A program made the translations under genes and the position numbers. From NCBI RefSeq assembly GCF_009834535.1, contig NC_045696.1:54686001-54750000 (forward strand): a DNA stretch of 64,000 nt, given 5' to 3'. Positions 1,093-33,539 of the stretch are shown in pieces (the stretch's first letter is position 1; every line of letters starts with the position of its first letter). Below the pieces are notes generated by a model. The model did not search any database, had not been told where the DNA came from, and was given only the letters and a program-made list of their open reading frames with translations. The DNA is from Camelus ferus (Eukaryota).

Positions 1093-1108
1093 CTTCCAAT
1101 TGTCTCAG
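1093..1108 (-). CDS. Candidate 16-nt exon (AETIG.), with an alternative distal donor giving 991-1108 and an in-frame stop
   Basis: Minus strand reads gaatttttattttcag|CTGAGACAATTGGAAG|gtgaga. A second donor TGT|gtgagt lies at 990-985. Confidence 0.5.
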
Positions 1109-2839
1109 CTGAAAATAAAAATTCTTTCTACAGTAGAAAGAATTCCCCAATCATGCTCTTCACTCAATAAAGCAGAAGGCCTTGATGCTGCTTCTCCCTC
1201 ACCTCCCTTGTGTCTATCTGCATGTGTCTCTCTGTCACATACACACACATGTGCATGCACATGTAGTGAGATTACAATGATTAACTGGGAACCATGTGAC
1301 AGGAGAGAATACCTTCTCCAAGAAGTGGATTCTGAAATACTCACTAACTTGGCTTGATTCAAAAATTCTGTAACGAATTAATAGAAATATTTACCACACA
1401 GGTTTCTCTGAAAAGCACTGTGCTAGCCGTAGTGTAGAACAAGGTCACAAGCCCCTTGCCCTCATAAGGCAGAGAGGTCCGTACATAAGTAACCATAACA
1501 TCAATGGATCCACGGTGCTGTCTCTGTCTAAGGGATACAAGCAAAGGGAGAGAGATTTCAGCTTGATACAAGAAAGGAAGGATAGATGAAAGGAAGTCTT
1601 ACGTCTGTAAAGGGACCTGCATAATCTCATCAGGACAATAAATGCTTCCATGTAAGTTATTTAAGTTAAACTTTCTGACTACTCTATGGTATAGCATTAT
1701 TATTCCAGATGTTAAAACTGACAATCAAAAAAGTAACTTTCCCCATTTGTCAGTGTCAGTGGTATAATATGAAGTTAAGAGCACATTCACAATATAAAAC
1801 CTGGGATTCTGTTGGTAGTTCCAAACATACTACTACTCATAACTATGCCAGCAATACCACATTGTATAAATTACCATATAGAGTATAAATCTTTGAGTGG
1901 ATTGGTGTGGATACCCTTAAATTGCTGGCACTATGTTAATCAACAGAGTTGTAGTGTCACTAAATGGCTACTTGGAAACATTTTCTAACAATAGTATGAC
2001 ATGAAGCAGGGTCACGACTTTTCTAATACATATCAGAAGAAGTAATTTAGTATGGCAGCATTCATGGACCAACAATAAAGGCAAGTGGCAAAGGCTCATT
2101 GAAAAACCTTGACCCATCACTGAACACCATTGTCAACAGCTGAATGTCATGGAACACAACTTTTCAAAGGATATGAAGCTAGAATGTATTACAGGAAAAA
2201 GCACAACATACACACTTTATAAGATAGGATTCAATGTTGAAGACAATCTGCCTTAGCCAAGATATAAGGTCAAGGGGTTAATGTCTATTTTTTAATATTA
2301 TTTGATTAGCTTAATTTTCCATTAAATATCAAATCAGCAGCCTACTATCTATTTCAGAGCAGACAGGGCATCTGACATTCTTAGCAGCTGTGATTTTTCC
2401 CTAAGGGTTTAATGGGTTTGTGTAATATTTGTACAAAGTAATATTATCATTATCATAAATGTTTTCTAATTATTTCTTGGGATTAATGGAAGCATGTTGT
2501 ATTATTGATGGATTCAGTACAATATTTATAAAACAGTGATAGGATTAAAGGAAATAAATATGTATATCTTTCTGCATATGTAAATAATAAATATTAATTT
2601 CCATCATCAATTCTGTGCAAAGTGGTTTAGTACATACTAGTAACTACTAAACAGTTCAGTTATCTGTTGTGGATTTGAGGTATGTTTATCTGCAAGCTGA
2701 AGGACTTTGGTAAAGCCCTTGAAGATTGCAGAAAGGACAAGGATATGGAAAATGAACCCAAGAAATAATCAAAGTGTGTTGGATTTTCAGAAAATCAACA
2801 AAATGTAACCAATAAAATTCCAAGGAGGAGGAAACTTAC

Positions 2840-2845
2840 CAACTT
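2840..2845 (-). CDS. Candidate 6-nt microexon AAGTTG (E-V in phase 1)
   Basis: Minus strand reads ctttgttgtttttctgtttttgatag|AAGTTG|gtaagt: long U-rich tract, consensus GTAAGT donor, frame-preserving length. Confidence 0.5.
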
Positions 2846-4734
2846 CTATCAAAAACAGAAAAACAACAAAGTTCCATGGGCTATCATAAACTCACAAAGA
2901 GAATATCCATGTGTATACAGTTGTTGGTTCATGCATGTATATTATTTATGCTAGAGTGCCTCTTCAGCGTCATCCTATTGCTTTTTGACTTGTGCATGCA
3001 TGTTTTTTTCTCTGACCCATTTGGTTGTGTAAGCTCCCTGCATATAGCAATAAAGCATCTATGTGACAGACTGTAAACCAACAAGGATTGGAAGATAGAA
3101 GATTTGGCTTGGAATTCAGACCGTGACTTACCAGCTGAGAGATGTTAGGAGACAGTAATGGTGTGCATCACTAGTTCTTTCTCTTACTATCATTTTCAAT
3201 AACTAGGTCAATCCTTTACTGCAACCAAGGACTTGGTTTTGATATAAATGCAAAGCAATTTCTCCTCCAGAACTGAAAAGCGTAACACATTTTAAGGCTA
3301 AGATATGAACCACTCAAGAAACATATGTTTGCTGATGAGGTTTTAAAGAAATTACATCAGTGAACTGATGGAAGTCACGTAAACAAATAGATTCATAAGA
3401 GACTACAGAAAAGATGATACAGTTTTAAATTGCATTGCCATTTCCGGTAGATAGATAGAGAAAGCTGTTTTCCCTTTGGATTAATGTATTCTAAGTTAAG
3501 AGACAATGGTTTAGGAATTTAAAAAACAGGAAAGCTCTGGTCTTTCTATTCTAGTCTATGAATAAATATGAGTCTGAGTGGTATAACCTTCTGAATTTCT
3601 CATTTGATTAACTTGATCAATTTAATTTCTGTTTTAAATAAGCCTGTTTCTAACACACTATTACCTTTTCCTATGGGCAAAGTTATTGTCAATAACCCTT
3701 ATGGTTCATTATCCTAGTCTTAATAGATTTGTTAAGAATGGAATAACATCAGCTAAGGAGAAATCATTTACAAAATCAGATTGTGAAGTCTTAGTCTCAG
3801 CATCCAGGCTTATTTTTCCAAGGAAGTAATCCAGGCAGTGTGGACTTTTCAGAAGTTTGCCAGGGTGACAGTTGGCTGTATAATGACATGCACAGATGTT
3901 ATGAATACAGGAGGCATCTCTGGATCACCCCAGAAGTCTGAGCCTTCACCCTAGGCATCCCTAAGGTGCAAGAAAACTTTTCAAATCTTCACCTGTTTCA
4001 GAGGACACAGAATGCCCCCGGATCCCAAGTTGGCTCAAGCATCTGTTCTTACTGCATTGCACCAGAGCTAACATCACGAAAACTACTATGCTGCCTGAAC
4101 AACATGACAATAAATACTGTTCCTTAATGTAAATGAATTTGCATAAACCTGTCCAAGCAAGAAATGACCATGTATTCTTTTAATCACTTATGCTTTTTGC
4201 TGTTTCTGGAAAGGTTCAGGTTAGTGTCATATTTTTTCTAAGCAATTTTAGGCCAAGTAGGTATTTCCAATCTCATTCAGTCCACAAAAGTTATTTCTAA
4301 TCAGCTATTTGTTTTCTATGGCCACTCAAATTGAGAATAAAGGCACTATCGAAGCACAGAAGATTCCTGGTTAACTGGTACCCAGGCAACAGGAGTGATG
4401 AAAACAGGTACAAATCAAGTTCAAGAGGCAGAAAATACAGCAATCTGGGCTGCTGAAGATGGTCAGATGAATTGTGTGTAAGTTGCCTTTTGGAAATGTT
4501 ATTCATCACCACAGTCAGACTTAATCGGTCTTTGTCAAATTTAAGAAATAAGAGTTAGGCCTTATTATCCATAGGCAAGGTCATTTACTCTCCAAATTTA
4601 GAGAAATCTTAGCTGAGAGTGCATGTTAGCTTAACAGACATTATTAGAAAAGGAATATGATCCTATAAGTAAATGTCCACAAAGATTTTAAGTAATTCTA
4701 TGAATATACCATTATATTAACATACAGCTGAGAA

Positions 4735-4878
4735 CAGTGGTATGGTATGAGTATGGTCCTCAAACCAGCAACATCAGCATCACCTGAGAACTTGTTGGAA
4801 ACAAAAATTCTTAGACTCTATCTCACACTTCTTTAATCCAAAACACTAGAGGTGGAGTCCAGCAACCTGCCTTTAATG
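4735..4878 (+). mobile_element. MER5A-like hAT-Charlie MITE (partial)
   Basis: CCAGCAACATCAGCATCACCTGAGAACTTGTTGGAAA...GTGGAGTCCAGCAACCTG. Confidence 0.8.
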
Positions 4879-6317
4879 AAGAGCAACACAGAGAAAATTA
4901 TGTCCCTAAATTCTAATCAAAAGCATATTTATTCCAGGCTAGTTCCATATAGAAATTAATTTAACCTGCAGTTCACTGGAAAATTAAGCTAATTCTAATA
5001 TTCTAGTCCTTGATCATACCTGTTGATTAAATTATTGTAGTTATTTTCCTCAACTACAATATTTAGAAATTTATTAATATTTAGAATACCATCTGTTTTG
5101 GATTCAGTGGTTTAATTGTGACTACAACTGTAGTAAAATATTTTAAATAACAAGAATATAAGACAGGTGCTTTAATGTATCTATGTACCTAAGCCCCAGG
5201 CAACATACTGATTTTTATGTATCTTTCAGGATTTGCATCAAAGAATAAAAGACAGTGTTAAAATTATACAGTATCAGATGAACTATACAAGAATATTTAG
5301 GATCTGGTGTGACTTGAGAATAGAATATGAAATCTTTGCTTTTAGAAGTCTCCTGTGGAATTGAGGTGGAGAACTGCATGGCAGAATAATATTCTCACTT
5401 CTCTTGGGAGTTTAAATTCTTCTGAGCAGCTCAGAACTCCTGTAGAGACTACCTGACACTTTCATTTTCCTTCCCATCTTTCTCTTCTAATTGCCCTTGG
5501 CCAAATCCAAAACCACAGGGGCATAAAAAACTTCCCACCCCCTCAATGAATGATTTCTAAGTCATAGATAACTGTGTTCTGAATTTCACAGTGATGGAGC
5601 AGAAAATTGCAGAAGGTACAAAGTAAAGGATGAAAAGGACTCATTCAGAAGCTGACAGCTGGTAAAGAGCAGAGATGAAACAATTAGGGACAAGCCAGTC
5701 AGATCTGGAACTGAAGAAAGTAGAGAACTAGGCACGCAGTAACAAGGTCGTCAGAATTAGTCAGGTCAGCAGCCAAAGGAAACAGGAAATGGAAAGGTCA
5801 AGGATTGATTAGGGAGGAAGGAAACTATGCCACTTCCTTTAAATCCCATTGCAAGCCCTTTTCTCAGGATTCTAAGTTAGGTCATGTACTAGACGCTGGC
5901 AAGTCAATGAATCTACACTTTAATTCATGTACTAAACTTTATAATCCAGTACACTAAGGTGCTACTCAGCGCCTGGCTACCTTTATACCCTTGACTTGTA
6001 CAATGCAGTGGTTATCTTAAAGTACCTCATTTTGCTCAGATCACCTCTCTTCTTCCTCCTATTTAGGAAGCAAATACAAGATGTCAGCTCACAAATTTGG
6101 CCTGGAAAGAAATCCACCTTGGCTTGCTTTTTACCAGGTTATAAGTGACAAAAGTGAGAAACTAATGGGATGGTCTGTTCTTCCATCCTCTGCATATCCT
6201 GGACACCAGGGAAAGAGTTCAGGCCGTCACGGCTGACCCTTCTCAGCCCTCAATCAAGATAGTATAGACAAACGATAAGCGATTAATCAGATATCAAATG
6301 GTCAATCTTATCTGGCT

Positions 6318-6366
6318 ATCTTAATGACTAAAACAAGGGGAAATTAGTTCTTTTAGTCACTAAGAT
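6318..6366. repeat. 16-bp inverted repeat (hairpin)
   Basis: ATCTTAATGACTAAAA-(17 nt)-TTTTAGTCACTAAGAT, with one mismatch. Confidence 0.85.
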
Positions 6367-6479
6367 CACAAAATCCGATCATTCACTCTAGAAGTGATGG
6401 ATGGACTCTGAATCCCTAACTCAATTTAAAAACAAATAGTTAATAGAAGACACATACCTTAAAACTCACCATATTAATC

Positions 6480-6674
6480 TTTTTTTTTCTTTTGTCAAAT
6501 AACCCTTTATTGAATCATTTTTCCTTGTAGTTCTTAACTCTCTGGGCATTCCACCATATCACTGTTGTCATCTATGATGTCATGAGGGTGGCAGCCATCA
6601 ACACTGCAGTCTGCAGACTGGGCAGTCCCCAGGATCTCTTTAATGGTTTCAGAGAGTTCTCTAAATAAAGATCA
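6480..6674 (-). pseudogene. RPL12: Processed pseudogene: 5'-truncated 3' fragment of ribosomal protein L12 (uL11) mRNA
   Basis: Minus strand translates [45 protein letters not shown], against the RPL12 C-terminus [50 protein letters not shown] is at 6536-6534, AATAAA at 6511-6506, followed by an A-tail. Confidence 0.95.
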
Positions 6675-8035
6675 TTTTTAAATGTACTGTCAAATATTTT
6701 GAAATAAAATTTAAATAAAAATAAACCCCACATAGTTACAGCATGTAGCCCTAACCCAGTTCAAGATAATTAAAGTTGAAGGCAGCCTCAGATATAACCC
6801 TTATAGGTACTCACAGGTCCATATCCAGAAAGGGAGAAAGATCCAGAGATGTTCAACACTTTGCCCAAAGGTCACACAACCAGTGACAAAATCAAAACTA
6901 GACCCAAGCTCATTTGCAAGCCAGTTCTCTTTCCTTTTTAGTCAGTCTGAGTCAGGACAGCACAAAATGAAGCAATATGGCAATTATCTGATAAATTTGA
7001 TGGATGTGTATGGACAAACAGGGATAATTATGGCCAGAAAATCCAATTTAGATCCTCAATTACCTAGATTGACTGTCTACATTGACCAAATAAACTGGAT
7101 AATGGCCAAAAATGCACTCTACCTTGTGCTGTGCACCCGTAGCCTGAGAAGCACTTCATTGTGTTTGTGAGATTAATAGGAACACACACAACACTGAGAT
7201 AACTAAAAGTACCAATGTGAATGGATGCATCTTCCACCAATGAATGGATCTGCAAGTTACCCCACATCTCTTCTATTGACAAGTCAAGTGAAAACGATAG
7301 AAGAACTAAATGCAAACACGTTACAGAATTTCTCTGAGGAAAGCAATCACGCTGCCTCAGTCCAGATCCTTTGTTTCATCGAGATTATTATTCCTCCAAA
7401 TGAATCAGCTATAATTAGGTCCAAGCTGTAAGACGAAAAGACTACAAAGGCCTCCTACCAAAAAGCCTCAATAAATCTAGGTCATTCTTGACTGTATTCG
7501 AAAAATCACATAGGTCTCTGTTGTGAATGTAAGATAAACATTACACTTAGAATGTTTGGTTGTGGGGAAGCATTTGAGGAAAGGGGCTCTCCATCAATGT
7601 CTGTAAAAACTTTCCTGCGAGATGTCATGTTTTAAAACAAGAATTCTGCCATTCAAATTTAGAGTGATTTGCCTGTGCAAAGTTTCAACAAGAAAAAAAA
7701 TGTATCAAAAGTAAGATGTTTCTCTCCAATTTTAAGAATAAATAGGTTCAGAACTTTTTGTGCCGACATCAGGAACACAAATGACTGTGCATCATGATTA
7801 GAGGCTGAGAAGAGAAGCCAGGGGAAAGATGAATCAAAAAGCAAGATACAATTTGGTGCAGTGCAAACAGTATTGGACTGGGAGTCACAAAACTGGGTTT
7901 TACATCTCCATTTGGCAGGAAACAGCTAGGTTATATGAGACAATTCACCTTCTCTCTGGACTTTTGTTCCCTTATCTCTAAAATGTGAAAGCTGACTAGA
8001 TTAGTTTCCAGTTTTACCTCTCTGTGACTTTAAGC

Positions 8036-8258
8036 CAGGGATTAGCAAACTAAGGATGATGGTCCAAATATAGACCACCACCTGTTTTTGTAAATAAAGT
8101 TTGATTAGAGCACAGCCATGCTCCTTCATTTACATATTGCCTGTGGCAGCTTTCATGCCACAAAAGCAGAACTGGATAATTGCAACAGAGACTGGGTGGC
8201 CCACAAAGCCCAAAATACTTACTAATCTGGCCCTTTACATAGAGTCTGCTCATCTGTG
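8036..8258 (+). mobile_element. MER58A-like hAT-Charlie MITE with 8-bp TSD
   Basis: CAGGG...GCAAACTA...CCACCACCTGTTTTTGTAAATAAAGTTT...CCCACAAAGCC...TGGCCCTTTACA. TSD CTTTAAGC (8028-35) / CTCTAAGC (8259-66). Confidence 0.9.
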
Positions 8259-9214
8259 CTCTAAGCCATTGACAGTGTTTCTGACAAAAGAGGATACCTT
8301 GGCAACACTGCTAAGCCAAGTCCATATTTCAGTTTATACCCATTTCAAAGGTGGATTTTTATTCATCTCTGCCTAAGGCCATGAGGAGTAACATCCTTTG
8401 TGTGATGATATTTTGTTGTCCTTTTACAGCCTGGCCACTGGATGCACTGGTCTTTCACTATAACGTCAATACCTAAGTGACATCAGTTAATAGGGGCGTT
8501 GTCTGAAGGTAGGGTTGATGTAGGTCATTAAAATTTTATTCAAAACTAGCCAGTTCCTGGGTCAGGAGGAAATCCTCCCCCATCTAAGAAAGGACAGTAA
8601 GTCAAGAGATTGACACTGAATGAGGGAGAGAAAAGGAATGGTTGTTGAATATCTGTAAAGTCAAAAAAAAAAAAAAAAAAAGAGTATGCATCTAAGACAG
8701 TAGTGTAACTCATATAACTTTCTTCTTGAGCATCACAATTCATGTTGAAGCTGAAAATCTACATCCAAATTAGTAAGTAAAGAATTGTTGCAGACTCTGA
8801 AATTACCTGGATGCCTTAAAACTCAAATGATGCAAAGGAAGGAAACTCATACATGCTCCTTCTTATCCAATCTCACTTCTCATAAAACCTCACTATTAAT
8901 GCGGAAGCCCCTCAGAGCAACATCAAGAGAGGCCACCAGTGCAGCCTTATCTAGATGCTGCATTTCTCTGTTATCCAAGGACACGCCTGGCTCTTCTTGC
9001 AGAATCCTATCAGAATTTGTGTCTTCAGCAATCTTTCTGCTCACTGCCATACTGAGACCCTAGAGAATACTTCCCCTGGAAAATTCAAGACGCTGGCAAG
9101 GATATCCAAGAGTCAACTCTCCACTGAATTAGTAATTGTAGAATTGTTTTAAGGAATTCATAGGAGCTGCATACAGCCTTGAAACATACTCCACTGCTGG
9201 TACCTGTGGAGCCA

Positions 9215-9640
9215 ACATGATGAAGTGGAATAAAAGTGGGACTTGGGGTCAATCACTCTTGATTTACAATCTTGGTTCTGTCATTTTCTTACGGTATGAA
9301 CTTAGTTGCCTAAAGCCTCTGAACTGATTCTAGCCAATCAAACGGAGCCAAAATGTTTCCCTTACAAGAGTATTCAAATCTCTTAGAACCGTGTACAACT
9401 GTTTTAAATATCTGCTGTTATCTTTTGAGTCACCACTAGGTGCAAATACATTAACTCATTTAATCCTCAAATATCTTTCTCAAGATTGGAACCATTAATT
9501 TCATTTTACAGAGAAGGAAACCAAAGGCTAGCCAAGTTAAGAAATGTGTCAATTGTCACACTGCTATTAAATGACACAATAGGCATTTGAGTCCAGGCCT
9601 GAATCCAAAGCCTATGTTACTCCCTCAAATCCAGTGTCTT
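9215..9640. mobile_element. Two MIR SINEs in opposite orientation
   Basis: MIR core on + (GGACTTGGGGTCA...) and on - (ATTTAATCCTCA...CATTTTACAGAGAAGGAAACCAAAGGCT...GTCACAC). Confidence 0.75.
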
Positions 9641-11464
9641 CCAATGGTGATTTTTTTCTGTCTACCAATGGGCTGTAATATTAACTGGGGTACAGAGTAT
9701 GGAGCACCTGAGCCTTACCATTCAGAAATCATCTGCCTACACACCATCCAAAAGGCTATGCTCCAAGACCCTAATCCCAGTACTCCTTGCCTGCCATATG
9801 CCTTGATCCAAGGACAAAGGCTGGACAACTGACTCCACTTCCTACTTAGCTTTGAGCTTTTCCCTTTATCTCAGTTCATTCAGCTGAGTGTATATAATCT
9901 ACTTAGTCCATGCTATTCATCATCTTCCCCCTTGCCCAAAACAAACCGAGGGGTACATATCAACATCTCTCAATCCTTTGGAGGAATTTGGCCATAACTA
10001 AGAACGCCTAAGAGTAAGGAGATGCCATCTCCATGGATGAGCTGTTGCCAGGGCTTCCCCCACCAGATTTCATGCTCATCATGTTGCACCAATATGTCAT
10101 GCCCATTCTAAGATTTAAGTCCCAAATGCACAATAAAGACCATAGTGAGAGCCAGGCTTGGTGAGCAGTCACCTCCCTTCCTCTCCTCCTTCTCTCCCTG
10201 ACCATGCTGCTCACTTCCCCAGCCTGCCTCCCTCCAGGGTCTGCTCAAGGTCTGGAGTGCTCTGTGAGGAGCCAGGTGTTCTGAACAAGCAACTAGTTGT
10301 GAACTCAGTTACCCAACACACATAGATAACCATGACCTAGCCAAGGAGCTTCTGCACATTTGGTCAGGGAAGCACCCACTCCAAACCCAGGCTTCTGTAC
10401 ACATCTGATGGAGAGAGAACTGAAAATCAAGAAGAGGAAGAACTGCTGTGTGGACCTTTAACAGTGTGATTTTATGTAAGTACTCTGTTATTTGTCCAAG
10501 GGCATGTTTGCTTTGGCTAAACAAAGGGGATATGAAAAATCTTTGCTTAAAAACTTGTATGTTTCCTCTGCAAAGCCTGTTTCAATACTTCATTCTAAGA
10601 TGTTCCTTTATAACTTAGTGTAATTTGCTGTAGTTCATCATAAATGGCTCTAAAATCCCACAGGCAGGGTGCAAAGGAGAAACTGGAAATCATGGAAAAA
10701 CTGAATGAGGAAGATGAAGGGGTTTCTCTCCTTCCCTTCTCACCAGCCTAACTCATATTCCTTATGTCTTTGAAGTATACATAGCAGCAGTAAACCAAAA
10801 TATAGGAAAACATCACCCATTGTTGGCTGTCGATTCTGTCTGTTTATACTAGAAGCTTTAAATCTGGATTATAAATCAAAAACCCCTATAGTATAAAGCT
10901 TTAAGTGAATTAAGAAACTTCCAACCATGTGAAATACATGAACCTGTTTTCTAAAATATTAAAAATTGCATTGTCCAATCATTCCTCTTCAAATATATGG
11001 ATTCTCTCATGAATATACTAATTCTTCTACCTTACATTAGAGCCATTTGTAAACATAACATCTCAACTATTAGACTGTTAGCACTGAGTATAGAGTCTAT
11101 GTCAGATAAAGTATTTTCTCCCCAGGACCCAGTGCAGTAGTTGATACACAGTAGGTCCTAAAGGTGGGGGAAAGAAGACTGTGACAGAGATTCTCAGTCT
11201 TCAGGAGATATGTGTTTACACTTTCATGATAGAGATATGTCACTAGAGAGTGGCTGACACCCAGGTACTCTGTTCTCAGGTGTATCCCTGACAAATTTTA
11301 ATTATGTCAAGCTATTGAAATGTGTCTATTTGCTACAGCAACTTGAGTAACCCTAATACAATTAACACACAGTTGAATTAATTAATTGGCTAATTAATAT
11401 CTAAATGATATTAATATCTGATATTAAAAATTAACTTCTGATTATGTAAGTAAGGGAATGAAGA

Positions 11465-11672
11465 TGGAATCAGATTTATAACAAAGCCAATGAAGCTTAT
11501 ATTTTAGGGCCCTTCACTAGCACAGCCCCCTTCCAAGATCCTGGAATAGGCCTAACAACATGTTCACAGTTTTTGTAAATTTTTCAAAAGCAATTTTTAA
11601 AATTATTCTTCTTGGGAACAGATCCCAAAATTATGAAGACTTCAGGGTCCACAAAAACTGACTCTGTCCCTG
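11465..11672. mobile_element. MER53/Zaphod-like hAT MITE
   Basis: AAGCCAATGAAGCTTA...GGGCCCTTCACTAGCACAGCCCCCTTCCAAG...CTTCAGGGTCCACAAAAACTG...CCCTG. Confidence 0.7.
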
Positions 11673-13803
11673 GTTAAAGATAAAAGGGCATGATGGTATA
11701 TAATGCACATAAAGTATGAACTTTGTATTTGTAATGCACAGAAAGTCGATCTCTTCCCACTGAAGTTGACTGTTTTATTAATAAAATGTCACACAATCTA
11801 AAGTAGTCTGCAATTTATTGTCACATTTTCTCTCATTAGTTTTTCTATGATGCCTTATGTAGAAAGAATTGCCTCATTAATAACTCTGACGAGTTGCTTT
11901 TCAAAGATGTTGATTATTTTTTCCTTTTGCATTTGACAAAGCTTAGAAATAGGACCAAAATGCCTTTCTTATAATAGTGTTAGGTTACTTTTTAATAATG
12001 AGTCAACTGTGGGAGTTTTAATCACTTACACTAAATTCATCTTTATGCACAGATAAACCCTACATGATACCCAAACTAACACAGACATACAACAAAGAAT
12101 TTATGGAGTACTCAGAAAAGGGAAAAATACTCAAATAATGTTTGACTGAAGTCAGCTTTCATATATTTAATATTTTTGTGGCTGAGATTATAATTGAGGG
12201 GGAAGAGATGGCTTATAAGCAAGTAACTTACGCCTGTGGGTTTGAGTTTGAGTTTTGAAAGTGAGTGTATACAACAAAGTATCTTGCCTTAATCATCAGT
12301 TCTAAACACTTGGGTCCACTATACTAAGAGAAGCTTTCCTTAGCAAATCTCTTGAATGTGTTGTTATTCAATTTGATTTGCTTCTTCCTTTATCACTGCC
12401 CAGCTTCTTACAATCTATAAGGAAAAATTTACGTATTTTTTGCTTCACTTAAAGAGGCTTTAGTGATTTCTTAACATTTTATTATAGATTTTTTCTCCTA
12501 TTTCTGGTATCAGAATAAAAGAAAAAATTACTCTCTAGGAAAAATTAATCTTAGAAGTTTCAAAAGCAACAATCCCACAATAGTTAATTCAGGACAGCAA
12601 AACAGAAAGCAAATCAAGGAACTAAAGATTAAGGCCTGGGTGTTTATAAGACAACATTCATGCAAATAGTTAAATGCACATAATAAAAGCTGAAGATATC
12701 TCTCTAGTTTCTGAAGTGAAAGAGTTCCCATAAAACCCACAAGTATTCATAGATGTATGCAGAGTTCACATTTTAATGAGGATGACTGTTTCCAGGAATT
12801 ACACAGTGGTGGTGTGCTATCCATACATAAGCAACACAGACAGAAGCTGCAACTGGTTTTCATCCCCCAGAGCTCACTTTTAACAGCTGAACATTAAAAC
12901 ACTGAATTTAGCATCGAAGAATCTCCATTTATTAAGTTTTGTTTCCAAGAAATTTCAAATGAGCTATTACAGAATAAATAATTTGAATTTCTCCATGTGC
13001 ATTTCATAAGTGAAGGTTTTTAGTACTCATGCCCATAAAGGTGTATTTTTATTATGACTCCAGTATCGTTAGCCCAAAGAGAGGAAATTATTTCCCCTGT
13101 ATCTAATTTAGACTTCCTTAAGCTTAGTGGTTTGACTTTAAATAACTAAATTTCATCTCAGAATTCTCTCTTCTTTAACTCTTTACAAGATACTTCTGAC
13201 ATATTCAAACTCCCTAATTTTACTGGCAGCTATCAGTTAAATAAGCATTTGATTGACTCCTTCAACGCAATTTAATAATTTTCCCTAACCATTTGTGACC
13301 AGAAGCCAGTTGACAAATGTTAACTGTAACACCTGTAAGTGCTGGTAGCTTTTCACTGTCCATGGCCTCCCCATCTCTCTGTAGCCCAGAGATATATCAA
13401 TTGAACCAGCTAGATAGTGGTCAAGATTTCTTCACAGGCCCTTCTGTCTATAGTAGACATTTGTTCTGTGCTCACGAACTTGATATATGGCTGTGGAATC
13501 AAAGACATACATTCATCATAAAAGAAGCTGGTCTTTTATTTAGGAACTGTAAGGTAGCTGATAAGTGCAAAGCAAAGAACACCCAAGAGAAAGAAGGGAA
13601 GAAAGATGGGGAGCTAACAGTGAGTAGAAATGAACAAAGGATTATGGAGTACTGCACAGGAGCTATTTATTCAGCTGCTGGGTTACAACCACGTTATCTT
13701 TTCAATTTCTTTCTTCTCCAACCCTTCCTTAGGGACCTACTACATGACCTTACAATAGGAAGTGCTTAGTCAATATTCACCACCACCAGAGCACACCAAT
13801 CAC

Positions 13804-13834
13804 CTGTAGTTTGTACCATCACTTCGGTAATGCG
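13804..13834 (-). CDS. Candidate 31-nt internal exon (phase 0->1; RITEVMVQTT)
   Basis: Minus strand reads ctcac...cattcctttttcctag|CGCATTACC...CTACAG|gtgatt, with a good branch point and polypyrimidine tract. 80+31=111 nt restores phase 1. Confidence 0.6.
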
Positions 13835-15509: not shown

Positions 15510-16440
15510 TATTAACTCCATTCTTTGAGTTGCGCAGACCACAATCTTTGGACTTTTATTATTTTAACTATGTTATGTCTAAATCTTTGGAGCCATTCCT
15601 TTCCTGACTTATGTCCCATACCCAGTCCATCATGAAGTACTGCCATCATGAAATATTTCAGCATGGATCCAGAATCTAACCATTTCTCATCACTCTCACG
15701 GCTACTACTTTGGTCCAAGTTACCATCGTATCCCACCTGTATTACTGCAATAGCTTCCCAACTATGTCTACAGGAGGATGACATTGCCTCTACCTTCGCG
15801 ATGCTCGTGCTCACCCGCAGGTTACTCTTTCATCACCACCGTCAAAATCATCCTTCTAAAGCCTAATTATGAGCATGCCACTTTTCTGCTTACAACCTTT
15901 CAATGGCTCTACAGCTCACTAGAAAGAAACAGGTCCTGACAATGGTCTGTAAGATCCTACACAATCCATCCATTTCTCTAACTTCATCTTCTCTTCACCT
16001 GCTTGCTCATTCTGTGCCCTCCACTCCGGCTTCTTGTTGCTTGAATACTCCAGGCATGCTCTGGCCTCAGCATTTCATAGCTTTCCCTTCTTCCTGGACC
16101 AATTTTCCCTCAGATATATACATGATTTGCTCCTCATCTCCTTCAAGATTCTGCCTAAATGTCACCTTCCCTGATTTCCCTTTGAAAAAATGCAACTTCC
16201 CCTCTTACCCCTGCCCCAGCCTTTCCTTCCTACTTTTCTTCACAATTAACTTCTAGCATACCATATAACTAACTTTTTCTTTTGTGTATTTTCTGTCCTC
16301 CCTGATCAAATGTAAACTTTAAGAAGTGGGGAGCTGGGGGCAGGGGACAGACGTGAAGAGGTTTGTTTTGTTCACTACTCAACCACAGTATGTAGTATGA
16401 TAGCACAGAGCAAGCATTTGGTTACTACTGACCAGTTAAT
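15510..16440 (+). mobile_element. L2 (L2a-like) fragment
   Basis: Pyrimidine-rich L2 text (CCAGAATCTAACCATTTCTC...TACTGCAATAGCTTCCCAACT...AAATGTCACCTTCC). It explains ORFs 15512..16256. Confidence 0.85.
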
Positions 16441-17295
16441 TAGTAAATTTGAAGATAAATATCAGGTTGAAGGGTAAAGAAGTAGAGGGGACAGTTCTGA
16501 ATAAAGGAACTTTCTGTATTCTGTTTATTATCACCAGAGGCAAATTCTTTCCCTGGCAACACAGAAGGTTGGTTCGAGGTATGCAAGTCTTCTACGTAAT
16601 CAGGCTTCTTTCTTAAGTAAATGTTGGAGATGATCTGACATTGAGTAATGTTCTTAGGCAGAAAAAGAATTCAGGAGTGGAAATGCTGCTGTTTTTTCCT
16701 CTAATTGTTGGGAATCCAACAATCACTCTTTACCCAGGAGGCTTGATTCAAGGGTCCAGTAGTTCCCTTCTCCAGCACTCTCTGCTCTAGCGAGTGAGTT
16801 GGCAAAAGTCAGGGAATGAGGGACTGGGGGAACAAAGAGAAAGTGTGAGGGCCTCCCTCTCTCCATGATTCCCTCAAAGTCTGAGACCTTTACTTCCCTC
16901 ACTTCTTCCCCTCTTGCCACTTTCTATGTCAAGGGGCAGGCAGGGCATGAAAAGGATTAAACAATCCTTTACACTGGGAATCAGGACTGGAGAAGGCAAT
17001 TTCAGGATTTACAAAAGTGATCAAAGGAATCTGAAGTTTTCCAAATTCCCAGTAAGAATGGAAAATTCAAAGAATTTATGGCACAAAGTACACTGAGTGA
17101 GTCACAGTCTTCTGCTGAGCTAATTATACAGAACAGAGAGCAGGGACCCATCACCACAGATGGTCAGCTGGGCAAAGAAGGAATGATGAATGGGACCTTA
17201 ACACTGTCCAACCACCTGGCCCAAAGGGCTCCCTTTCTGAAGACACCCTCAGTCTGTTTGCATGAAAGTAGAGTGCTAGAACAATTCTATCTTAC

Positions 17296-17375
17296 CTTTT
17301 TCTTTTCTTCTTTACGCATGTGCTTCAGCACGACGTCAACAAATGAAGTACCAGCAAAAAGAGACCACGTCCAGT
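17296..17375 (-). CDS. Candidate 80-nt internal exon (phase 1->0; DWTWSLFAGTSFVDVVLKHMRKEEKKK)
   Basis: Minus strand reads catttttgtag|ACTGGACG...AAAAAG|gtaaga, a strong AAG|GTAAGA donor. It has a purine-rich GAAGAA-type enhancer-like 3' end and 4 CpGs. Only one frame is open. Confidence 0.65.
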
Positions 17376-20300
17376 CTACAAAAATGTTTAGATTTCAGTG
17401 CACTTTTACTTGTTTCGTTAGAGAAAGAGTATCAGCTATATCCGACCCAACCACTCCATACAAACTTTAATTACAACACTCAGAAAACATGGCATGAAAA
17501 AAAAAATTAAATGTAAATGAAAAAGGAACTGATCCCTGGGAAGAGATAGGCTGTTGTGAACTGTGGATCTTTATTCCAAGAAAATCTACAAATGAAGACA
17601 TTATTAGGGAACTTGACAAGTAACAAACAGCAATACAAATACCAAAACACCTTCTTAATCAGAGTTGATATATGTAATTAAATTTTTTTTGGTCATTAGG
17701 GGAATCTCTTTATCTTACTGACAAGACAAAGAAGGCATCATTAGTTGAATACAACAATCAAACATAGCAACATCTGACTCCATGTGAATCATCCTGAGGT
17801 AAAGGTAAAGAGATAATGTTAAAGCTAAATAGAAGAGCCATCATTTTATTTTAGTGGTTTCCCAGGCCACTGGACATGACCTGTATTTCCAAAGTTCTGC
17901 CTCTCTTAAAGACTCCTGTGCTCAGATATGCAAATCTACTCTCATTCTAAATTTACCTTGGGAGAGTCAATCAAAATAAGGAGATCAGTAATTTATTTTT
18001 TCATGAATTTTGGGGAAGAGCTGCCACTCTGGATCTTCTGGATTAAACAATCTTCCCAGAGCAAAGTTCTGGAGAAGAGAATCCTCCTCTTGCACTTGGC
18101 TTAACCTTAGACAGGCTCTTTAACCCGAACATTACAGAATTTTGACTCTAACTTGGGCAGGAAGGTAGGCTGAAAAAGATCTTCTACCTCTGAGAGGAAT
18201 TAAAGACTGTCTGGCAGTCGAAGAGTCTGTAGAATTACATGACATTCTGTCCAGCTTGATCTTCCTGAGGCCTAGGGAATGTCCCATTGTCGGTTAGAAG
18301 TGGTTTTGTCAAACAAGTAGAACTAGTCAATGGTCACCTGATCTACATTCAGTATCACTTTGTATACTTCGATATTTGAAAGCTTTTATCACATCAGGCT
18401 AAAAAATTCAATCCTCATACCCCATTTCCTTCATTGCACTTATAATAATTGTAATTGATTAACTGTGTGATTATAGCCCTGTTTGTTCACTGCTTTATCC
18501 AACGCACTTAGAAAAATGCCTAGCAAATAATATTCATTATAAAAGTAATCAATGGATGGATAAATGGAGGAAGGAGGTAGCTTCTCTAAACTCATCCCCT
18601 TTGTTCACAATGATAATTGAGTTATTGTTTTAAGGATCTTTAATCAAATTAAAAGTTGCTGAGCTCACTTTTGAAGCAAGATCATTGTCACCTACATCCT
18701 TAAATATGGAGATAAAAGTTCCTTCCTCTGTCTGTGTTACTCCCAGGCCAACCTAGGTTTAAGGGTTTATTTATAATGGTACGAATCATTTTGTGCTGGG
18801 AATGCTCACAGCAAGTCCCTGATGTTCAAATATAAGAAATTTCAGTATTTTTCTACTAAAATCATGTGGGTGGCATGGTGGAATGAAACAAATATGCACC
18901 ATGGTGTTCTTGAAACCAGGGATTTCAATGCCAACTTGTCTTCTACACTTTATAATTAGTGGGGGATATTACATATTTCTGAGCCTCGGTTTCTCCATGT
19001 ACAAATATGTCCACACCATTGCAGACAAATTGGGAAGATCAAATGAGATTTTTAAGGAAAGGCTTAGAAAGTACTATAGACGCTTAATAATTCAACAAGG
19101 AACATCAGCAAGCCATCCTCTGCCTGAACACAGGAAAGATGGCAACAGCCATTTTATGGGTTTCATTTTCCACATTTGTAACTGAATACAGTCTCCTGCT
19201 CTCTTCTGAAGAGCATCAAAATTAGATAATTCCTGGAGCTTAAAAGTCATTCAAAGAGGAGGTTCATGAAAGTCAGCTAGGGGCTATCAAGTCCTCAGGT
19301 TCATGTTGTTGGAGTAAAGTACCGAAGATCAGGAGACATAGACTCTGGCTGGAGGCTGTCTGTGTACCTACACATGTTTCTAGACTTCACTGCTGGGCAC
19401 TCCTGCCTTGTTAGTCTGGGATATCACATCCCAAGACCAGGCCTCATCCTCAAGTAAACCATCACTTCACCACGAGTAAGGGGATATATGTTCCCAAAAA
19501 ACAAAAACTCAAAGTCCCACAAGCCACACATGCATGCAATTCAAGTAAATGATACAACATTAATTGAAATGCTTAAGAGAGGCTGTGAAGTAAGACATAC
19601 TGAAAATTAAATCCTGACTCCACCACTTATTGGTTGGGTAATGCTGGGCAAGACACACAACAAACCTGAACCAAACTTCTTCATCCAAAAGAACAAATGG
19701 AATAATCATGGCTGTTTTGCTGTGTTGTGTGAGGAATAAATAATAGAAGTCCCCACTCTATGGAAAGCATTCAATAAAGATCTGCTGTTACATTAATTCT
19801 TAGTCTATATTGTGAAAGCTTGACCTGAGAGTGTGTCTGAGAGCATACAGATGATCAATATATCAGTTTGTATTTATTGTTTAAATTGTCTTCATTTAAG
19901 GGAGCCTGTTTTTAAAAATAAACATTTGACTTTGCAACCTTAAGACTGAGATCTCCAATATAGATGAAGCAGTTCAGAAAAGGGATGACAGTTCTGATGA
20001 TCCAGGTGCTTCCATGAAGAGCCACGATGTTCAGTGGTACCAGAACCCCACATCAGTATCAGTGTGCTATCTTTAAAGGGATGCTTACACTGAAGGATGT
20101 ATTTGGGAGGGGAATAGATCTTACAAATTATGTATATTTAACACCTAAAAGAGAAAATATTACTATAACAACTTAACACTGGTACAAACTGAAAAAATGA
20201 AATGTAAAATAATTTGTACTAACACAGTGCTTATTTACCACAGGAAAATTTGACCTAAAGTTGGTATTTTTCTTAATTTCATTCATGTTTATATAAATAT

Positions 20301-20758
20301 TAGTCCAAGATTAGGAAAATGTGGGTTACCTTTTACAGACTCTGTTAAAAGAGGATCAAAGAAAGAGTTTTACATACCCAAATAAGAAACAAAATAGTGA
20401 AATATCTTGATACCCACCCTGAGAGAAATAAGCACTATCATAGGTAATGAAAAATCAACTCACATTTGGTTTTGCAAAGGCGGCACTTATGTTTAATATT
20501 ATATGTTATAAGATTTATATTACAGTAGATTAAATGTTGTAAGGATAAAATACACAATATGTAATCATATTTAATATATTAGTGATAACAATCATATTGA
20601 AATACATGTTCTGTGTTCACTATATTATACTACGGTACTGCAGTAAATTGAATTAAGTGTATTTAATACCTTGAAAACTCACAGCTCTTCACTCATAAGA
20701 TAAAGGAAGGTCTGGCTGCCTTTTTGTCCCACTGTTCATCCTTTCTATCCCCTTATTC

Positions 20759-20796
20759 TATAAATGTCTGAAGAATGCATTTCTCAGACATTTATA
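20759..20796. repeat. Perfect 13-bp inverted repeat with a partly palindromic spacer
   Basis: TATAAATGTCTGA-agaatgcatttc-TCAGACATTTATA. Confidence 0.9.
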
Positions 20797-22314
20797 AACA
20801 GCCATCCTACAGCCACGCTTGTTTCTAAACATGCTGCTTCACACCTTCCATGGGACAGGTTAATGATTATTTTTGGTTTTAGACGCCATCTGTTACAGCT
20901 TCTTCTGGGCCAAAGATCCTGTTTATGTCAACAAATTACTTAATTAAGCAAACTAGGTGATGACAATGATGAGGTTTTGAAAATGATGTGGGTGTTCACG
21001 GAAACCATGTAACTCAGTATTATGCTCTATTTGGAAGAATATAGAGGAGCTGCATTAGGGAGCAGTGTAGTGGGATAAGGGGTACAGATAAGAGGGGACC
21101 AGCAAGGTCCCCCAAGAGGTGGGATGGAAAGTGATGGAGTCCACAGGTTGAGGAACTGGCTTTAGGTCCAAGGATTCGCACCGCTTCCTCTGATAGCAAA
21201 GGAAAGAAGGTCTTTCATAAAGGAAAGAAGACAAATTGAGTTCCTCCTGTGCACTTAGTAAGGCCTACCATGTGACAGGCCATGGGGAGAAAAGGGACAT
21301 CAATACCTCTGCACAGCTGTAGAGTAGTTTCTAAAAGTCCACATTCACTTGACAATGAACTTGACTTCAGAATACTGTCTCACTCCTGAGATGCTGTATC
21401 TTATTTAATTCATGACTCCCTGATGCTCCTGCATACTCAATGAAGACTCCAAATTAGAGCACTCCTCACAAATCCCCTTAAATCACTTTTGTCAAATTAC
21501 ATGCACAAAATATGATTTCATCTCCATTAAGAAATTCACTAATTCTAAAATTAGCAGATAATTCAAATAATGTTTTTTGTTTGTAAATTCACAGCTCTCA
21601 TGGATTTTCTATAATTCTAATTACGTGCAGGAATAGACAAACCAGAGTTTATAAAGAAAACCCTTGGATTTACTATAATTTTAATAATATTGAAAGGATA
21701 GACTTAAGCCACTATTATTATCAGATGTTAAGCTTAACTGCTCACAAAAGTCATGCCTTCCATACATGGAAAGACTTCTCTTGTTTGAAATGGGATTCTA
21801 AACATGACTTCTTCAGAAAGCCCAAAATGTTAAGTAATGCTTAGTTCAGCAAAATCACTCTGGTACAAATACACTTATGGCAATAACCCTAATTATAATA
21901 ATTTGGGCAATACTGTACAAACAGCCATTGGACCACTGCCCTAACTGACCCCTGGGAGTAATACATCACTGGCATCAACACCAGGTAGATCCAAAAACAA
22001 AGTATTAAGATCTTGAGTTATGAACAGTGAAATCTCCCAATTGGAAAGTTTAGTAAAAATGCGTTGTGTATAAAGTTCATAATGAAAAAAAGGCAAGTGG
22101 TCTTGTACATAGTAACTCGAAAGCACTATTTTTAAATAGCTGGAAATAAATGAAATAAATACCTGTGTTGTTCCCTGCTGATGACCATCAGGCCCCAAAG
22201 AAATGTATTAAGAGATGGGAGGAAAGAGGAACTAAGTAGCCAGAATGGGCTCTACTCCATTCTAATCACCTCCTTCATTGCTCTGCAAGCAAATTCTGGG
22301 ATTCTAATATAAAG

Positions 22315-22445
22315 GATGATCGTAAGTCTTAGCTTGGCTTAGACAGTACTAGTTTATACCTATGGTCCCAGTGCAATTATTGATAAAGTTCCCTTTCATT
22401 CTCAGAAGTGCCTTGGACTGAACGATAAACTACGTGGTCACCCTA
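22315..22445 (-). mobile_element. MER94-like hAT-Blackjack MITE
   Basis: GGTCCCAGTGCAATTATT...CCCTTTCATTCTCA...GATAAACTACGTGGTCACCCTA terminus. Confidence 0.75.
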
Positions 22446-24700
22446 CCAGTAAGCTGTCAGACAATGATTGATCTCCCTTCAGAGTATTGTGACATTAAAA
22501 GGAATGGATCACTGCGTTATCTGTTGCTGTCATTGCTATTATTTAATACCAAGGGAACAGTATTGGTGTGCTGAAGACAAGAATCAATAAAAAGCAATGC
22601 TATGAGCCTTCAGGAGATGAACAGAACCTCATTGTGAGGAGAGATTTTAGAAGTGACTAGCATTTTATGTTCACCAAGAAAAAGCTGATTGTCCAAACAA
22701 CATGGCAATACTATAGCTTGGATTTAACATTTAACTAGCAAGTAAAATCCTTATCTACAGAATCCACAAGGCAATGAAAGGCTCATGCCTCTGCCCTGAT
22801 TCCGTTCACCTCCACAAAATGTAGAAATTGTTATTCTTCAATTGTTCAATCCACAAACTTTTATTAGAAATCTATTACAATTTACCCCACTATTTGTCAT
22901 GATGGCATTTAGAAGCAGCCATGGTACTTGCCTTTAAACAGCTCATATTTTAACTGATGATTCAAGACCAAAACAATCACATAACTAAGTACAAAACTAA
23001 GTGGCAATAACTCTTACATAAAGTAATTTTTAAAGCAACAGAATACTGAGTAAGGGCCACTCAAGAATAAAGGCTTGAACTTAGGCATAAAGGCTACAGA
23101 TGTCTCCAAAGGATGGAGAGGAGAAGAGTAACTGCAGGAATGAACATATTCAGGGGCTAAAATCAGATTGGTTTTGAAAGGAAATTTTAAAAACATAGTT
23201 GAATAGATATGGTGGAGCCATCTTCCAGAAACTTCAGAAAACTTAGGTACAAATATTCAGATTTGAGGTAAATATATGGTACTGATGTTAAAAATCATCC
23301 AGTGTCTGTCATCTCCATTTTAGTAAAGGTTTTTCTACACAACAATCTGAGACTCAACATGATAAAAAGTTCTAGACAGGAAAAATATCCAGCCTCTTGT
23401 TATCCTCAGTCCTAAAGAACAGCTGCAGTGAACAAAAAATGTGATCCAATAAACTGTACATTAATTTATGATTCAGATATTTCAGATTTCTTTGAATAAC
23501 CAAAGAAAGATATGCCCTGAATCCAAGCTCACAACTTTTAATTCATTTTCTCTTACTTCCCAAGATCACATACCCTGGTGATGACTTTAGGATTCAGAAT
23601 GTTTAGACCCTTTCAAATATACAAAGGTTATTACTCTAATCCTCTGTTTTAACCTCCTCTCACCATTGCTTTCATGAAGACTCACTTGTCTTCTGAAGGT
23701 ATTCCCAAGTAAACCTCCCTGCCTCCACTCACCAAAATTACTCCATCAAGATAACTGCCAACCAAATCTGTGAATACTCAGTATTTTCTGTATAGCAGTA
23801 ATTAATTGATGATAGGCATATTTTCATAATGTGAATCTGTCTTCTCTTTCCTCTTTTAGACTGTGATCACTACAAGGGCAGGAAACTATCTTCTATTTTC
23901 TTGCAACCATCATTATGTATTATTATTTAGCATTTAGTAAGATACAATAGTTTATTGTAGAAGAATATGAATCAGTTTCTCACAGCTGAAAGCATATAAT
24001 GACCACAAAAAATAGAAGCATTAGTACTAGCCAAAGGAATTAAAAATAAGAAAACTAACTATATGTAAAATTTTGAATCAAATAAAATAGTAAGAGAAAA
24101 TAGATTCTCTAAATAAATAGGCAGGCTTGAAATAAGTGACTGCTCAACAATGGCTAAAATACTGATTTTTTTTTTTTTCTGCAATAAACCGAAGAGCAAT
24201 GGATGATTAGGAAGTAACGAAGATGCTGCTAAAATAGCTATTGATGAAAGGCTGGTAAGAAAACACTCAGAACAACCGAACATTTACAAATAAGGAATCC
24301 CCTGGTAGAATTATTGAACATGGGACAAGCTAGGGGGAATAATTAGATAGATTTTGAAAGTGAAATTTGAGGGCCGAGGCAAAGCAGAATATTACAACAT
24401 TTCTGACACAATTACTGAGCTAGTCGACCAAAGAAATAGTGGATGAGTGCTGGCCCCATGCAGAATTGTTAAATGGTCCAAAATTGCTTCCAGGACCACC
24501 TACAACTCCTTCCCATGGCCATCCTTTGTCCATGGCCCCTTTGTCTTGACCCAATACTCTGACCAGTGCTTTGCAGCTATTCTGGCTGGCCAGATTACCA
24601 AAGGTAACTTCCTCTCCATTCTTTTCCCAGGCCTCTGTTTTCCACCAAGACAGTAGCTAGGTATGTTGTTATACTAATCAATGAAGGTTAACATAGTTTA

Positions 24701-26107
24701 CACATATGTAGTCAAATAATTTATGACAGAGGAGACAAAAATGTACGACGGGGAAAGGACAGTCTCTTCAATAAATGGTGTTGGGAAAACTAGACAGCTA
24801 AATGCAATGTAATGAATACCCTATATACACCATATACAAATACATCAAATATAGAAATTAACTTAAAATGGATTAAACACTTAAATGTAAGGCCTGAAAT
24901 GACAAAACTAGAAGAAAACATAGGTGGTAAGCTCCTTGACATTGTTCTTAATGTTTCTGTGGATCTGACTACAAAAATAAATCCAACAAAAGCAAAAATT
25001 AACAAATGGGACTACATCAAACTAAGAAGCTTCTGAAAATTGAAGGAAACTATCAACATAATGAAAAAGCAACCTACTGAATGGTAGAAGATATATGCAA
25101 ATCACATATCCGATAAGGGGTTAATATCCAAAATATATAAAGAAATCAAACTCTTTAAAAAAAATCTGATTAAAAAGTAGCCAGAGGATCTGAAAAAACA
25201 TTTTTCCAAAGATGAGATACAGATGGCCAACAGGCACATGTAAAGATGCTCAACATAATCATCAGGGAAATGCAAGTCAAAACTACAATGAGATATCACC
25301 TCGCACCTGTCAGAATGTCTACTATCAAAATGACAACAAATAACAAAAGTTGGCAAGGATGTGGAGAAAAGGAACCTCTGTGTGCTACTGGTGGGAATGT
25401 AAATTGGTGCAACCATTATGAAACAGTTTGAGGTTCCTCAAAAATTTAAAAATAGAATTACCATATGATCCAGCAATTCCACTTGAGTATTTTTCAAAAA
25501 AAAAAAAACAAAAAACAAGAACACTAATTCAAAAAGATTATGTACCCCTACGTTCACTGCAGCATTATTTACAATAGCCAAGATACAGAAGCAACCTAAG
25601 TGCCCACCTATGGATGAATAGAAAAAGAAGATGTGATATATACAAAAAATGGAGTATTACTCAGCCATAAAAAGAACAAAACCCTGCCATTTGTGACAAC
25701 ATGTATATCTAGAGGATATTATGCTAAGTGAAATAAATCAGACAGATAAATATCACATGATTTCACTGATATGAGGAATCTAAGAAACAAAGCAAAATAA
25801 GACAAAACCCAGACTCAGATACAGAGAACAGATTCATGGTTGCCAAAGGGGAGGAGGGCTGCTGGGGGTGGGGGCAAAATGGGCAAAGGAGATCAAAAGA
25901 TACAAACTTCCATGAATAAAGTAAGTAAGTCACAGGGAAGTAATGTACAGCATGGGTAACACAGTCAATAATATACTAATGTTGTGTGGTGACAGACAGT
26001 AACTAGACTTATTGTAGTGATCACTTCATAAGGTATATAAATGTTCAATCACTATGTTGCACACATGAAACTAGTAATATTGTATGTCAATTCTACTTTG
26101 ATAAGAA
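24701..26107 (+). mobile_element. 5'-truncated L1 (ORF2 3' end plus 3'UTR, L1MA/laurasiatherian type) with TSD
   Basis: ORF2 remnants (KWIKHLNVRPE...KINKWDYIKLRSF; REMQVKTTMRYHL). A 17-bp TSD AAGGTTAAC(A/C)TAGTTTA lies at 24684-24700 and 26108-26124. Confidence 0.95.
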
Positions 26108-26351
26108 AAGGTTAACCTAGTTTAATTAAATACTTTGTTTAGTGGCTCTACATGGCAGGAAGAGCTGTATACAGCAGAAGCACAGCCAATTCAGCATCAC
26201 ACAGCTGGACAAGAGGTGTGCTCACAGTCAGCAAGGCTCCTGAAAAAGTATTTTAAATTCTTCTGCCATACTTCAAGGTATTTGCTACAAATCACTGACA
26301 CTTCTCCCAAATGGCTACTGCTACACAGTCTGGTTTAATAAGGTTTTATTT

Positions 26352-26695
26352 ACAAATATCATGTGATATCACTTATATGTGGAATCTAAAAAAAAAATAC
26401 AAATGAACTTATTTACAAAACAGAAACAGACTCACAGACATAGAAAACAACTATGGTTATCAAAGGGGAAAGGGAGGAAGGAGGGATAAATTAGGAGTTT
26501 GGTACTGGAAGATACACAGTACTACACAGAAAACAGATGAACAACAAGGACCTACTGTACAGCCCAGGGAACTATATTCAATATCTTTGTACTACTCTGT
26601 AATGGAAAAGAATCACTTTTCTGTACACCTGAAATGCAATATTGTTAATCAAATATACTTCAATCAAAGAGTATATAATGTCAAATAAATTTTTA
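26352..26695 (+). mobile_element. L1 3' end (cetartiodactyl-type 3'UTR)
   Basis: AAATGAACTTATTTACAAAACAGAAACAGACTCACAGACATAG...GGGATAAATTAGGAGTTTGG motif. An imperfect TSD AAGGTTTT(A/G)TTT flanks both sides. Confidence 0.9.
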
Positions 26696-27034
26696 AAAAG
26701 GTTTTGTTTCATTGTTTTGTTTCTGGCCAGATGCTTACACTCACATCTCAGATCCCACTTATTCCTTCCCTACTCCTTGCTTTTCACAACCCTCCGTAAT
26801 TGTTCTATAGCTTGCTGGTCCTTACTCTCACTTTTTGTCTTATCTGTAAGTATGCTATGATCCTGGGTAAAAGAGTAAAGAGTTTCTTGGCTACACATTT
26901 TAAATGACCAACACCGGTTTTCATGACACACACTTGACACAATAGGATTTTTCTAGGAAAAAGTCCAAGCCTATTCATGAAGGTCCAAAAGCAGTTCTGA
27001 ATATAAGAAATTAATCGGACGGCAAAGTGAATAC

Positions 27035-27073
27035 CTAAGTCGGAAGCTTTGCATGGCGAAGTCAGGAAAACAG
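27035..27073 (-). CDS. Candidate 39-nt internal exon (phase 1->1; xVFLTSPCKASDL) of an unidentified minus-strand gene
   Basis: Minus strand reads tatctttccattttag|CTGTTTTCC...CGACTTAG|gtattc. CpGs are retained in the exon and the flanking intron. The frame continues into the 17.3-kb exon. The donor is only moderate. Confidence 0.5.
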
Positions 27074-33538: not shown

Positions 33539-33539
33539 T

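Follow-up and report, generated by a model that had tools for sequence, protein, structure and literature searches.

The neural adhesion gene LSAMP is described as having two promoters, 1a and 1b, with transcripts assembled from exons 1a, 1b'' and 2 and with an extra exon, 1a', in rodents (PMC5288359, PMC4409639), and the two promoters are held to differ in signal peptide only (PMC5288359). We analyzed a 64,000-nt stretch of the Camelus ferus genome (C1:54686001-54750000, hereafter the window), all of which (1..64000, minus strand) is part of the LSAMP first intron, which separates exon 1a from exon 1b''. A sequence-only reading of the window had proposed that five small minus-strand segments bordered by AG and GT form a hidden chain of coding exons. 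We find that one of them, segment 2 (17296..17375), starts at a real splice acceptor within this intron.

Segment 2 can be compared with rodent exon 1a', since both lie in the same phase-1 intron of the same gene and are spliced directly to exon 1a (PMC5288359, PMC4409639), and segment 2 is likened to 1a' also in being a lineage-restricted extra exon, a restriction that for segment 2 is presumed. However, rodent 1a' is a frame-keeping cassette retained in LSAMP mRNA, whereas segment 2 alone would shift the frame. Segment 2 also differs from 1a' in that it shows no sequence likeness to it, its donor is read through, and it is fed as well by exons upstream of 1a. A candidate 1a' remnant 107 kb from exon 1a was set aside: the match is weak (E 1.5) and the distance too short, because a mouse 60-bp exon, which its length suggests is 1a', lies past a recursive site 393 kb beyond the first (PMC8797253). 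No clear match to rodent 1a' was found in 964 kb of the 1,355-kb intron; the best match, a weak one, is at C1:54196139-54196177 on the minus strand (6/13 residues, E 0.36), 558 kb from exon 1a.

In human, LSAMP exon 1a is contained in an annotated long non-coding RNA, LINC03051 (lnc-LSAMP-1, ENSG00000239268), which we take to be the same gene as AC092691.1, and a UniRef entry under the LINC03051 name is the exon 1a peptide (P0028). The three names are linked in PMC11276434 and in a supplement row of PMC9074231, and long reads join AC092691.1 exon 1 to LSAMP exons (PMC10823626). LINC03051 may hold an annotated human counterpart of segment 2, and the upstream exons U1 and U2 described below are not known as part of it. 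A further likeness is to the alternative-last-exon isoforms made by intronic polyadenylation in the 5' portion of genes. They too are short transcripts that stop within the first intron by way of a novel last exon and contain only a small open reading frame (ORF); those isoforms end in introns of the 5' untranslated region, whereas the LSAMP intron here follows a coding signal-peptide exon (PMC12548281). For segment 2 this likeness rests on read-through of its donor, its poly(A) end being only predicted.

A used splice acceptor in the first intron of LSAMP

The host of the five segments is the known neural adhesion gene LSAMP, which bears out the earlier suggestion of a long-intron, possibly neural gene. 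The minus-strand exon 1a lies in a CpG island 3-6 kb beyond the window's right end; its signal peptide was identical to that of named LSAMP isoforms at 22/22 residues in a protein search, and exon 1b'' lies on the same strand more than 1 Mb downstream. A mouse LSAMP isoform aligns exon by exon to C1 from 54.754 to 52.83 Mb, with the immunoglobulin (Ig)-domain exons at 53.08-52.83 Mb on the same strand and 81-94% identical to mouse. Since the start of exon 1b'' was placed at C1:53398477, the exon 1a-to-1b'' intron measures 1,355,482 nt; it is of phase 1, matching the frame that had been assumed for the segments, which lie inside it 41-67 kb downstream of exon 1a. Among the window's ORFs of at least 100 codons from stop to stop (n=19), none was recognised as a gene, and structured RNA was rejected for the window after an Rfam scan returned 0 matches.

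RNA evidence for segment 2 comes from positions 17100-17600, with which 4 of the 24 listed RNA runs were compared (X2, X6, X22, and X23). Run X6, reproductive-tract RNA-seq according to its record, gave three contigs over this stretch, and one of them (56 nt, depth 4.6) departs from the genome exactly at the segment-2 acceptor, its 26 loose letters being the 3' end of LSAMP exon 1a. The join of exon 1a to 17375 removes a GT..AG intron of 50,584 nt and is in frame. Because a genome search with segment 2 returned just one match, no retrocopy in the assembly explains the junction. The acceptor is the only loose end of the junction contig, with none at the donor 17296, and a second X6 record runs unbroken from 17377 to 17100, crossing that donor. 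Run X6 also covers the upstream intron at depth 7.4 and therefore contains unspliced RNA or DNA. Run X2 gave one contig over the stretch, unspliced, while the single-cell raw reads of X22 and X23, of which about 1% were read, placed 0 reads on it and hence provide no test. The exon start at 17375 is apparently unannotated, and a literature search, mostly without subscription papers, found no paper describing it. The features on which these and the following results depend are all on the minus strand:

17296..17375 (-): segment 2, 80 nt; acceptor 17375 used; strong donor 17296, use not seen
67960-68026 (-), window-equivalent of L012:3960-4026: LSAMP exon 1a, 22 hydrophobic residues, phase-1 end
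83061-83142 (-), window-equivalent of L013:9061-9142: exon U2, from the P0026 reconstruction
from 84431 (-), window-equivalent of the donor at L014:431: exon U1, from the P0026 reconstruction; the upstream part of the U1-U2 transcript is placed at L013:9061-9142 and L014 about 431-810 (window-equivalent 83061-84810)
17078..17295 (-): continuation past the segment-2 donor, unspliced, at least 218 nt in the U1-U2 contig
16529 and 15560 (-): AATAAA, candidate poly(A) signals; contigs cannot show ends

A second transcript and read-through of the segment-2 donor

The same acceptor recurs, independently, in a second transcript. The antisense ORF over segment 2, used as a protein query, gave 2 matches among 4 candidates. 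P0025 and P0062, members of one cluster, agree with the genome throughout (1 and 0 changes), and P0026, a Logan protein from a 2,303-nt contig, leaves the genome at 17375, its tail mapping 15 kb upstream of exon 1a. Of 20 join positions tried for P0026, only the one that has a GT donor reproduces it, and window positions 17078-17375 together with U2 and U1 reproduce it at 132/132 residues, with canonical GT..AG introns of 65,685 nt (U2 to 17375) and 1,288 nt. This transcript skips exon 1a and segment 1.

Exon U1 lies directly downstream of a multicopy LTR-like repeat with 666 candidate copies, 40 of which were scored, the 39 other copies being 76-81% identical. By its general features, rather than by comparison with a repeat library, we take the repeat to resemble a solo long terminal repeat (LTR). 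We infer that the U1-U2 transcript starts in this repeat and is non-coding. It begins upstream of the 1a promoter, crosses the unused exon 1a, and reaches into the intron, and it could interfere with the LSAMP 1a promoter.

Both transcripts bear on what lies beyond segment 2. The donor at 17296 is read through in run X6 and in the spliced P0026 contig, which has lost two upstream introns and still runs at least 218 nt beyond 17296; donor 17296 joined to a downstream exon was not seen in X6, X2, or the P0026 contig, although contigs drop rare forms. The 17078..17295 continuation is likely the body of a longer terminal exon. When exon 1a enters segment 2 and the donor is read through, a 51-codon ORF results that ends three codons past the donor; its product would have no more than 51 residues, 29 of them beyond the signal peptide. 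The U1-U2 route gives a 49-codon ORF in a different frame. This difference in frame, the skipping of segment 1 in both observed junctions, and the read-through of the donor leave the modular coding chain unsupported. Since exon 1a supplies a start codon, the internal in-frame ATGs put forward as possible starts need not be invoked.

The other four segments

The remaining members of the proposed chain are as follows:

27035..27073 (-): segment 1, 39 nt, AG..GT with weak sites; unsupported, and skipped in both observed junctions
13804..13834 (-): segment 3, 31 nt, good sites at both ends; with segment 2 would restore phase 1
2840..2845 (-): segment 4, 6 nt, good sites, without upstream UGC
1093..1108 (-): segment 5, 16 nt, strong donor, weak acceptor plus two competing AGs; not a multiple of three

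The description of the five segments was accurate as to coordinates, AG and GT borders, lengths (39, 80, 31, 6, and 16 nt), and total of 172 nt; joined, they are open in one of three frames. CpGs number 2, 4, and 2 in the three larger segments, against a CpG observed/expected ratio of 0.15 for the window. What the RNA bears out of the five-exon splice chain is the segment-2 acceptor, 1 of its 10 splice sites; the other nine were not observed in use and none of the four claimed junctions was seen, the reads covering 17100-17600 only. The sites of segment 1 rank in the top 15% of intron AGs and the top 18% of intron GTs on a crude matrix built from general splice-site frequencies. Because the same matrix places the used acceptor 17375 only in the top 37%, a low score is no evidence against a site. 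The surroundings of segments 1, 2, 3, and 5 have 1 match each in the animal's own 2.09-Gb genome, the locus itself. A pseudogene or repeat origin was rejected on this single-copy status of segments 1, 2, 3, and 5, with segment 4 left out and with the limit that old repeats can escape such a search.

Segments 4 and 5 invite comparison with SRRM4 neural microexons, given their size (within 3-27 nt) and their neural host gene (PMC6948980). Segment 4 preserves the frame as these microexons do, while segment 5 (16 nt) does not. Microexons of this class are marked by a UGC motif in the preceding polypyrimidine tract and by strong conservation among vertebrates; no TGC lies within 40 nt upstream of segment 4 or 5.

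We asked how readily comparable chains arise in this intron. When the weakest of the five defined the site thresholds, 798 candidate segments of 3-100 nt were counted in the window. Among 26,757 random five-segment chains of 150-200 nt drawn from them, 650 were open in the phase-1 frame and 1,853 in any frame. The open frame is not beyond what chance gives. Segments 1-3 do carry a real excess of CpG, 8 where 0.76 would be expected in 150 nt (P 1.4e-6, a value limited by the segments having been chosen with CpG in view), and 166 kb of the intron contains 28 clusters with at least 4 CpGs per 100 nt. For comparison we scanned fifteen 64-kb windows of this intron on each strand, covering 964 of its 1,355 kb, and counted CpG-rich, stop-free, phase-1-preserving chains of 3-4 segments and at least 140 nt. 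Such chains could be built in 15 of 29 control strand-windows (7/15 antisense, 8/14 sense). The chain thus falls inside what chance can produce, if not strongly; most control windows are richer in CpG than the study window. Micro-segments with sites as good as those of segment 4 numbered 9 sense and 10 antisense in the 964 kb. CpG clusters also lie near segment 3, at window positions 13996-14120 and 15699-15855, and an AG..GT segment in the second of them (15815-15855) is as CpG-dense as the proposed segments and was not included among them.

Within LSAMP, the full five-segment chain would shift the frame and reach a stop after 88 codons if joined to the next LSAMP exon, and segment 2 alone joined to exon 1b'' is out of frame, with a stop after 66 codons. 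Of the 32 segment subsets, 12 keep the LSAMP frame into exon 1b'', about the third expected; segments 1, 2+3, 4, and 1+2+3+4 are among them, and segments 1-4 together would insert 52 residues. No segment-bearing in-frame subset was observed in the examined RNA contigs or protein records.

Homology searches with the proposed peptide gave no homologue. The 35-residue segment-2 frame had 0 hits at E 0.001 among 1.84 billion protein representatives, where an isoform clustered with LSAMP would be hidden; Pfam returned 0 families for 3 queries and an Atlas search with the segment-2 frame no usable hit, and a known domain or protein was rejected on these three results. Two scans of metagenomes, one for host-DNA orthologues of segment 2 (62 pattern matches, 0 confirmed) and one for its motif (6 matches, 0 aligning to the locus), were uninformative on conservation. 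None of 33 representatives of exon-1a protein clusters (24 longer, 9 near its length) continues into any segment, and none of the further listed members showing the 1b'' start carries one. Other inserts do occur at the exon 1a/1b'' boundary, of 20 and 34 residues in mouse and 36 in swallow. The suggestion of an unannotated isoform holds for a real, apparently unannotated exon start at 17375, whereas the protein chain proposed with it is unsupported.

Several other exon-1a protein records touch this intron. The hypothetical proteins P0017 (sheep) and P0035 (goat) join exon 1a to intron pieces 108-239 kb downstream, with counterparts at C1:54646179-54514768 on the minus strand; because some of these carry stops or frame shifts, both proteins are probably artefacts of gene prediction. 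P0013, a hypothetical protein of a rodent with exon 1a at its start, aligns to window positions 45039-45170 on the minus strand at 49% over 45 residues (E 1e-5); this stretch is probably a non-coding element that has been conserved. The Logan records P0014 and P0015 are transcript-derived LSAMP-1a forms that lack exon 1b'' and the first Ig domain, exon 1a or 1a' being joined directly to the middle Ig region.

Segments 1, 3, 4, and 5 are likely chance look-alikes. They are unsupported, yet not disproved, and the success of the sequence-only reading with a used acceptor and with phase 1 keeps them from dismissal.

Competing readings and their meaning

We favor, at a probability of roughly 0.6, the reading that segment 2 begins a longer, cryptic last exon, which is terminated by a signal within the intron, is also fed by U1-U2, and diverts part of the output of promoter 1a. 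Transcripts from exon 1a and from U1-U2 are both spliced to 17375, and the donor at 17296 is read through into the intron; the exon would then end at a poly(A) signal there, the candidates being AATAAA at 16529 and at 15560. Some transcripts would thereby be diverted from full-length LSAMP, a small leak lowering LSAMP-1a output. If 17296 were instead spliced to exon 1b'', the stop after 66 codons would likely lead to decay, and by either route the predicted net effect is the small leak rather than a new protein module.

A number of observations weigh against this reading. Few donors in the intron outrank that of segment 2 (top 0.22% of GT sites on the crude matrix), and exon definition usually pairs a weak acceptor lying 50 kb inside an intron with such a strong donor. 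Since X6 covers the intron too, its read-through may be half-spliced nascent RNA, the U1-U2 junctions were read from a translated ORF and not from contig letters, and rare forms are lost from contigs. The RNA coverage comes from X6 and X2 over 17100-17600, and the end of the terminal exon is predicted, no poly(A) site having been seen there. Out of thousands of AGs the sequence-only reading chose one that is truly used, and it arrived at phase 1 with no sight of exon 1a; this success makes its remaining picks more likely to be right. The CpG density of segments 1-3 is reached by only 6 of 610 window segments of 25-100 nt, and these six represent four loci, three being segments 1-3 themselves. 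Finally, among the 10 control strand-windows closest in CpG (336-372 versus 325), chains were built in only 2, and the window's own antisense strand, left out of these 10, yields no such chain.

The strength of the donor and the observed use of the acceptor would also fit segment 2 being an 80-nt poison cassette, with the read-through contigs as intermediates and its joining to exon 1b'' triggering nonsense-mediated decay through the stop after 66 codons. The intronic sequence in X6 makes the presence of nascent RNA likely, and decayed forms would be rare and lost from contigs. However, X6 has no loose end at 17296, and the P0026 contig retains the sequence beyond the donor despite having lost two upstream introns, so we regard this alternative as unlikely.

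That promoter 1a makes a hidden second product, either a secreted peptide through segment 2 or brain cassettes from segments 1-4 (up to 52 residues), appears to us rather improbable. For the cassettes, the viable form of the earlier proposal, segments 1, 2+3, and 4 would be included in frame between exon 1a and exon 1b'', lengthening the protein by 2 to 52 residues directly after the signal peptide in the manner of rodent exon 1a'. The phase of the host intron, the in-frame subsets, the CpG density, the good sites on segments 3 and 4, and the inserts found there in mouse and swallow are consistent with this arrangement; it is nonetheless highly doubtful given the chance chains in 15/29 controls, the skipping of segment 1 and non-use of the segment-2 donor in the observed contigs, the break in frame that segment 5 brings to the full chain, the lack of a UGC upstream of segments 4 and 5, and the failure to find a protein record with the insert. 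For the peptide, exon 1a and a long segment 2 would form a small-protein mRNA, with the LSAMP signal peptide secreting ~29 residues with a basic end. The junction is observed and in frame, the stop of the 51-codon ORF falls three codons beyond the donor that goes unused, and intronic-polyadenylation isoforms coding for microproteins have been described (PMC12548281). Against this stand the want of a homologue in 1.84 billion representatives, Pfam, or Atlas, the other frame used by the U1-U2 route, and an estimate that roughly 1 in 5 stretches of 80 nt lack a stop in a given frame; the peptide is predicted from sequence only, and its likelihood is very slim.

The notion that segment 2 is a recursive-splicing stop in the stepwise removal of the giant intron, which the four recursive sites of mouse Lsamp introns (PMC8797253) and the intermediate-like look of an exon 1a junction followed by unspliced sequence might suggest, is scarcely credible and already largely refuted, in that 0 of the 5 segments begin with the GT of the defining AG|GT and the last bases of exon 1a with segment 2 rebuild no donor.

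The locus, that of a known gene, contains one exon start that is real and apparently unannotated and that likely opens a cryptic or terminal exon. This adds to the LSAMP locus an unannotated exon start and an upstream, repeat-linked transcript, both useful for annotation, and the segment-2 exon fits the known leak of giant first introns into cryptic exons and is in that respect unsurprising. Were the 1a product translated and secreted, or the brain cassettes included, the finding would matter more, because promoters 1a and 1b are held to differ only in signal peptide (PMC5288359). Brain cassettes, if true, would place up to 52 residues at the tip of LSAMP, retuning an adhesion molecule whose two promoters are believed to yield identical mature proteins.

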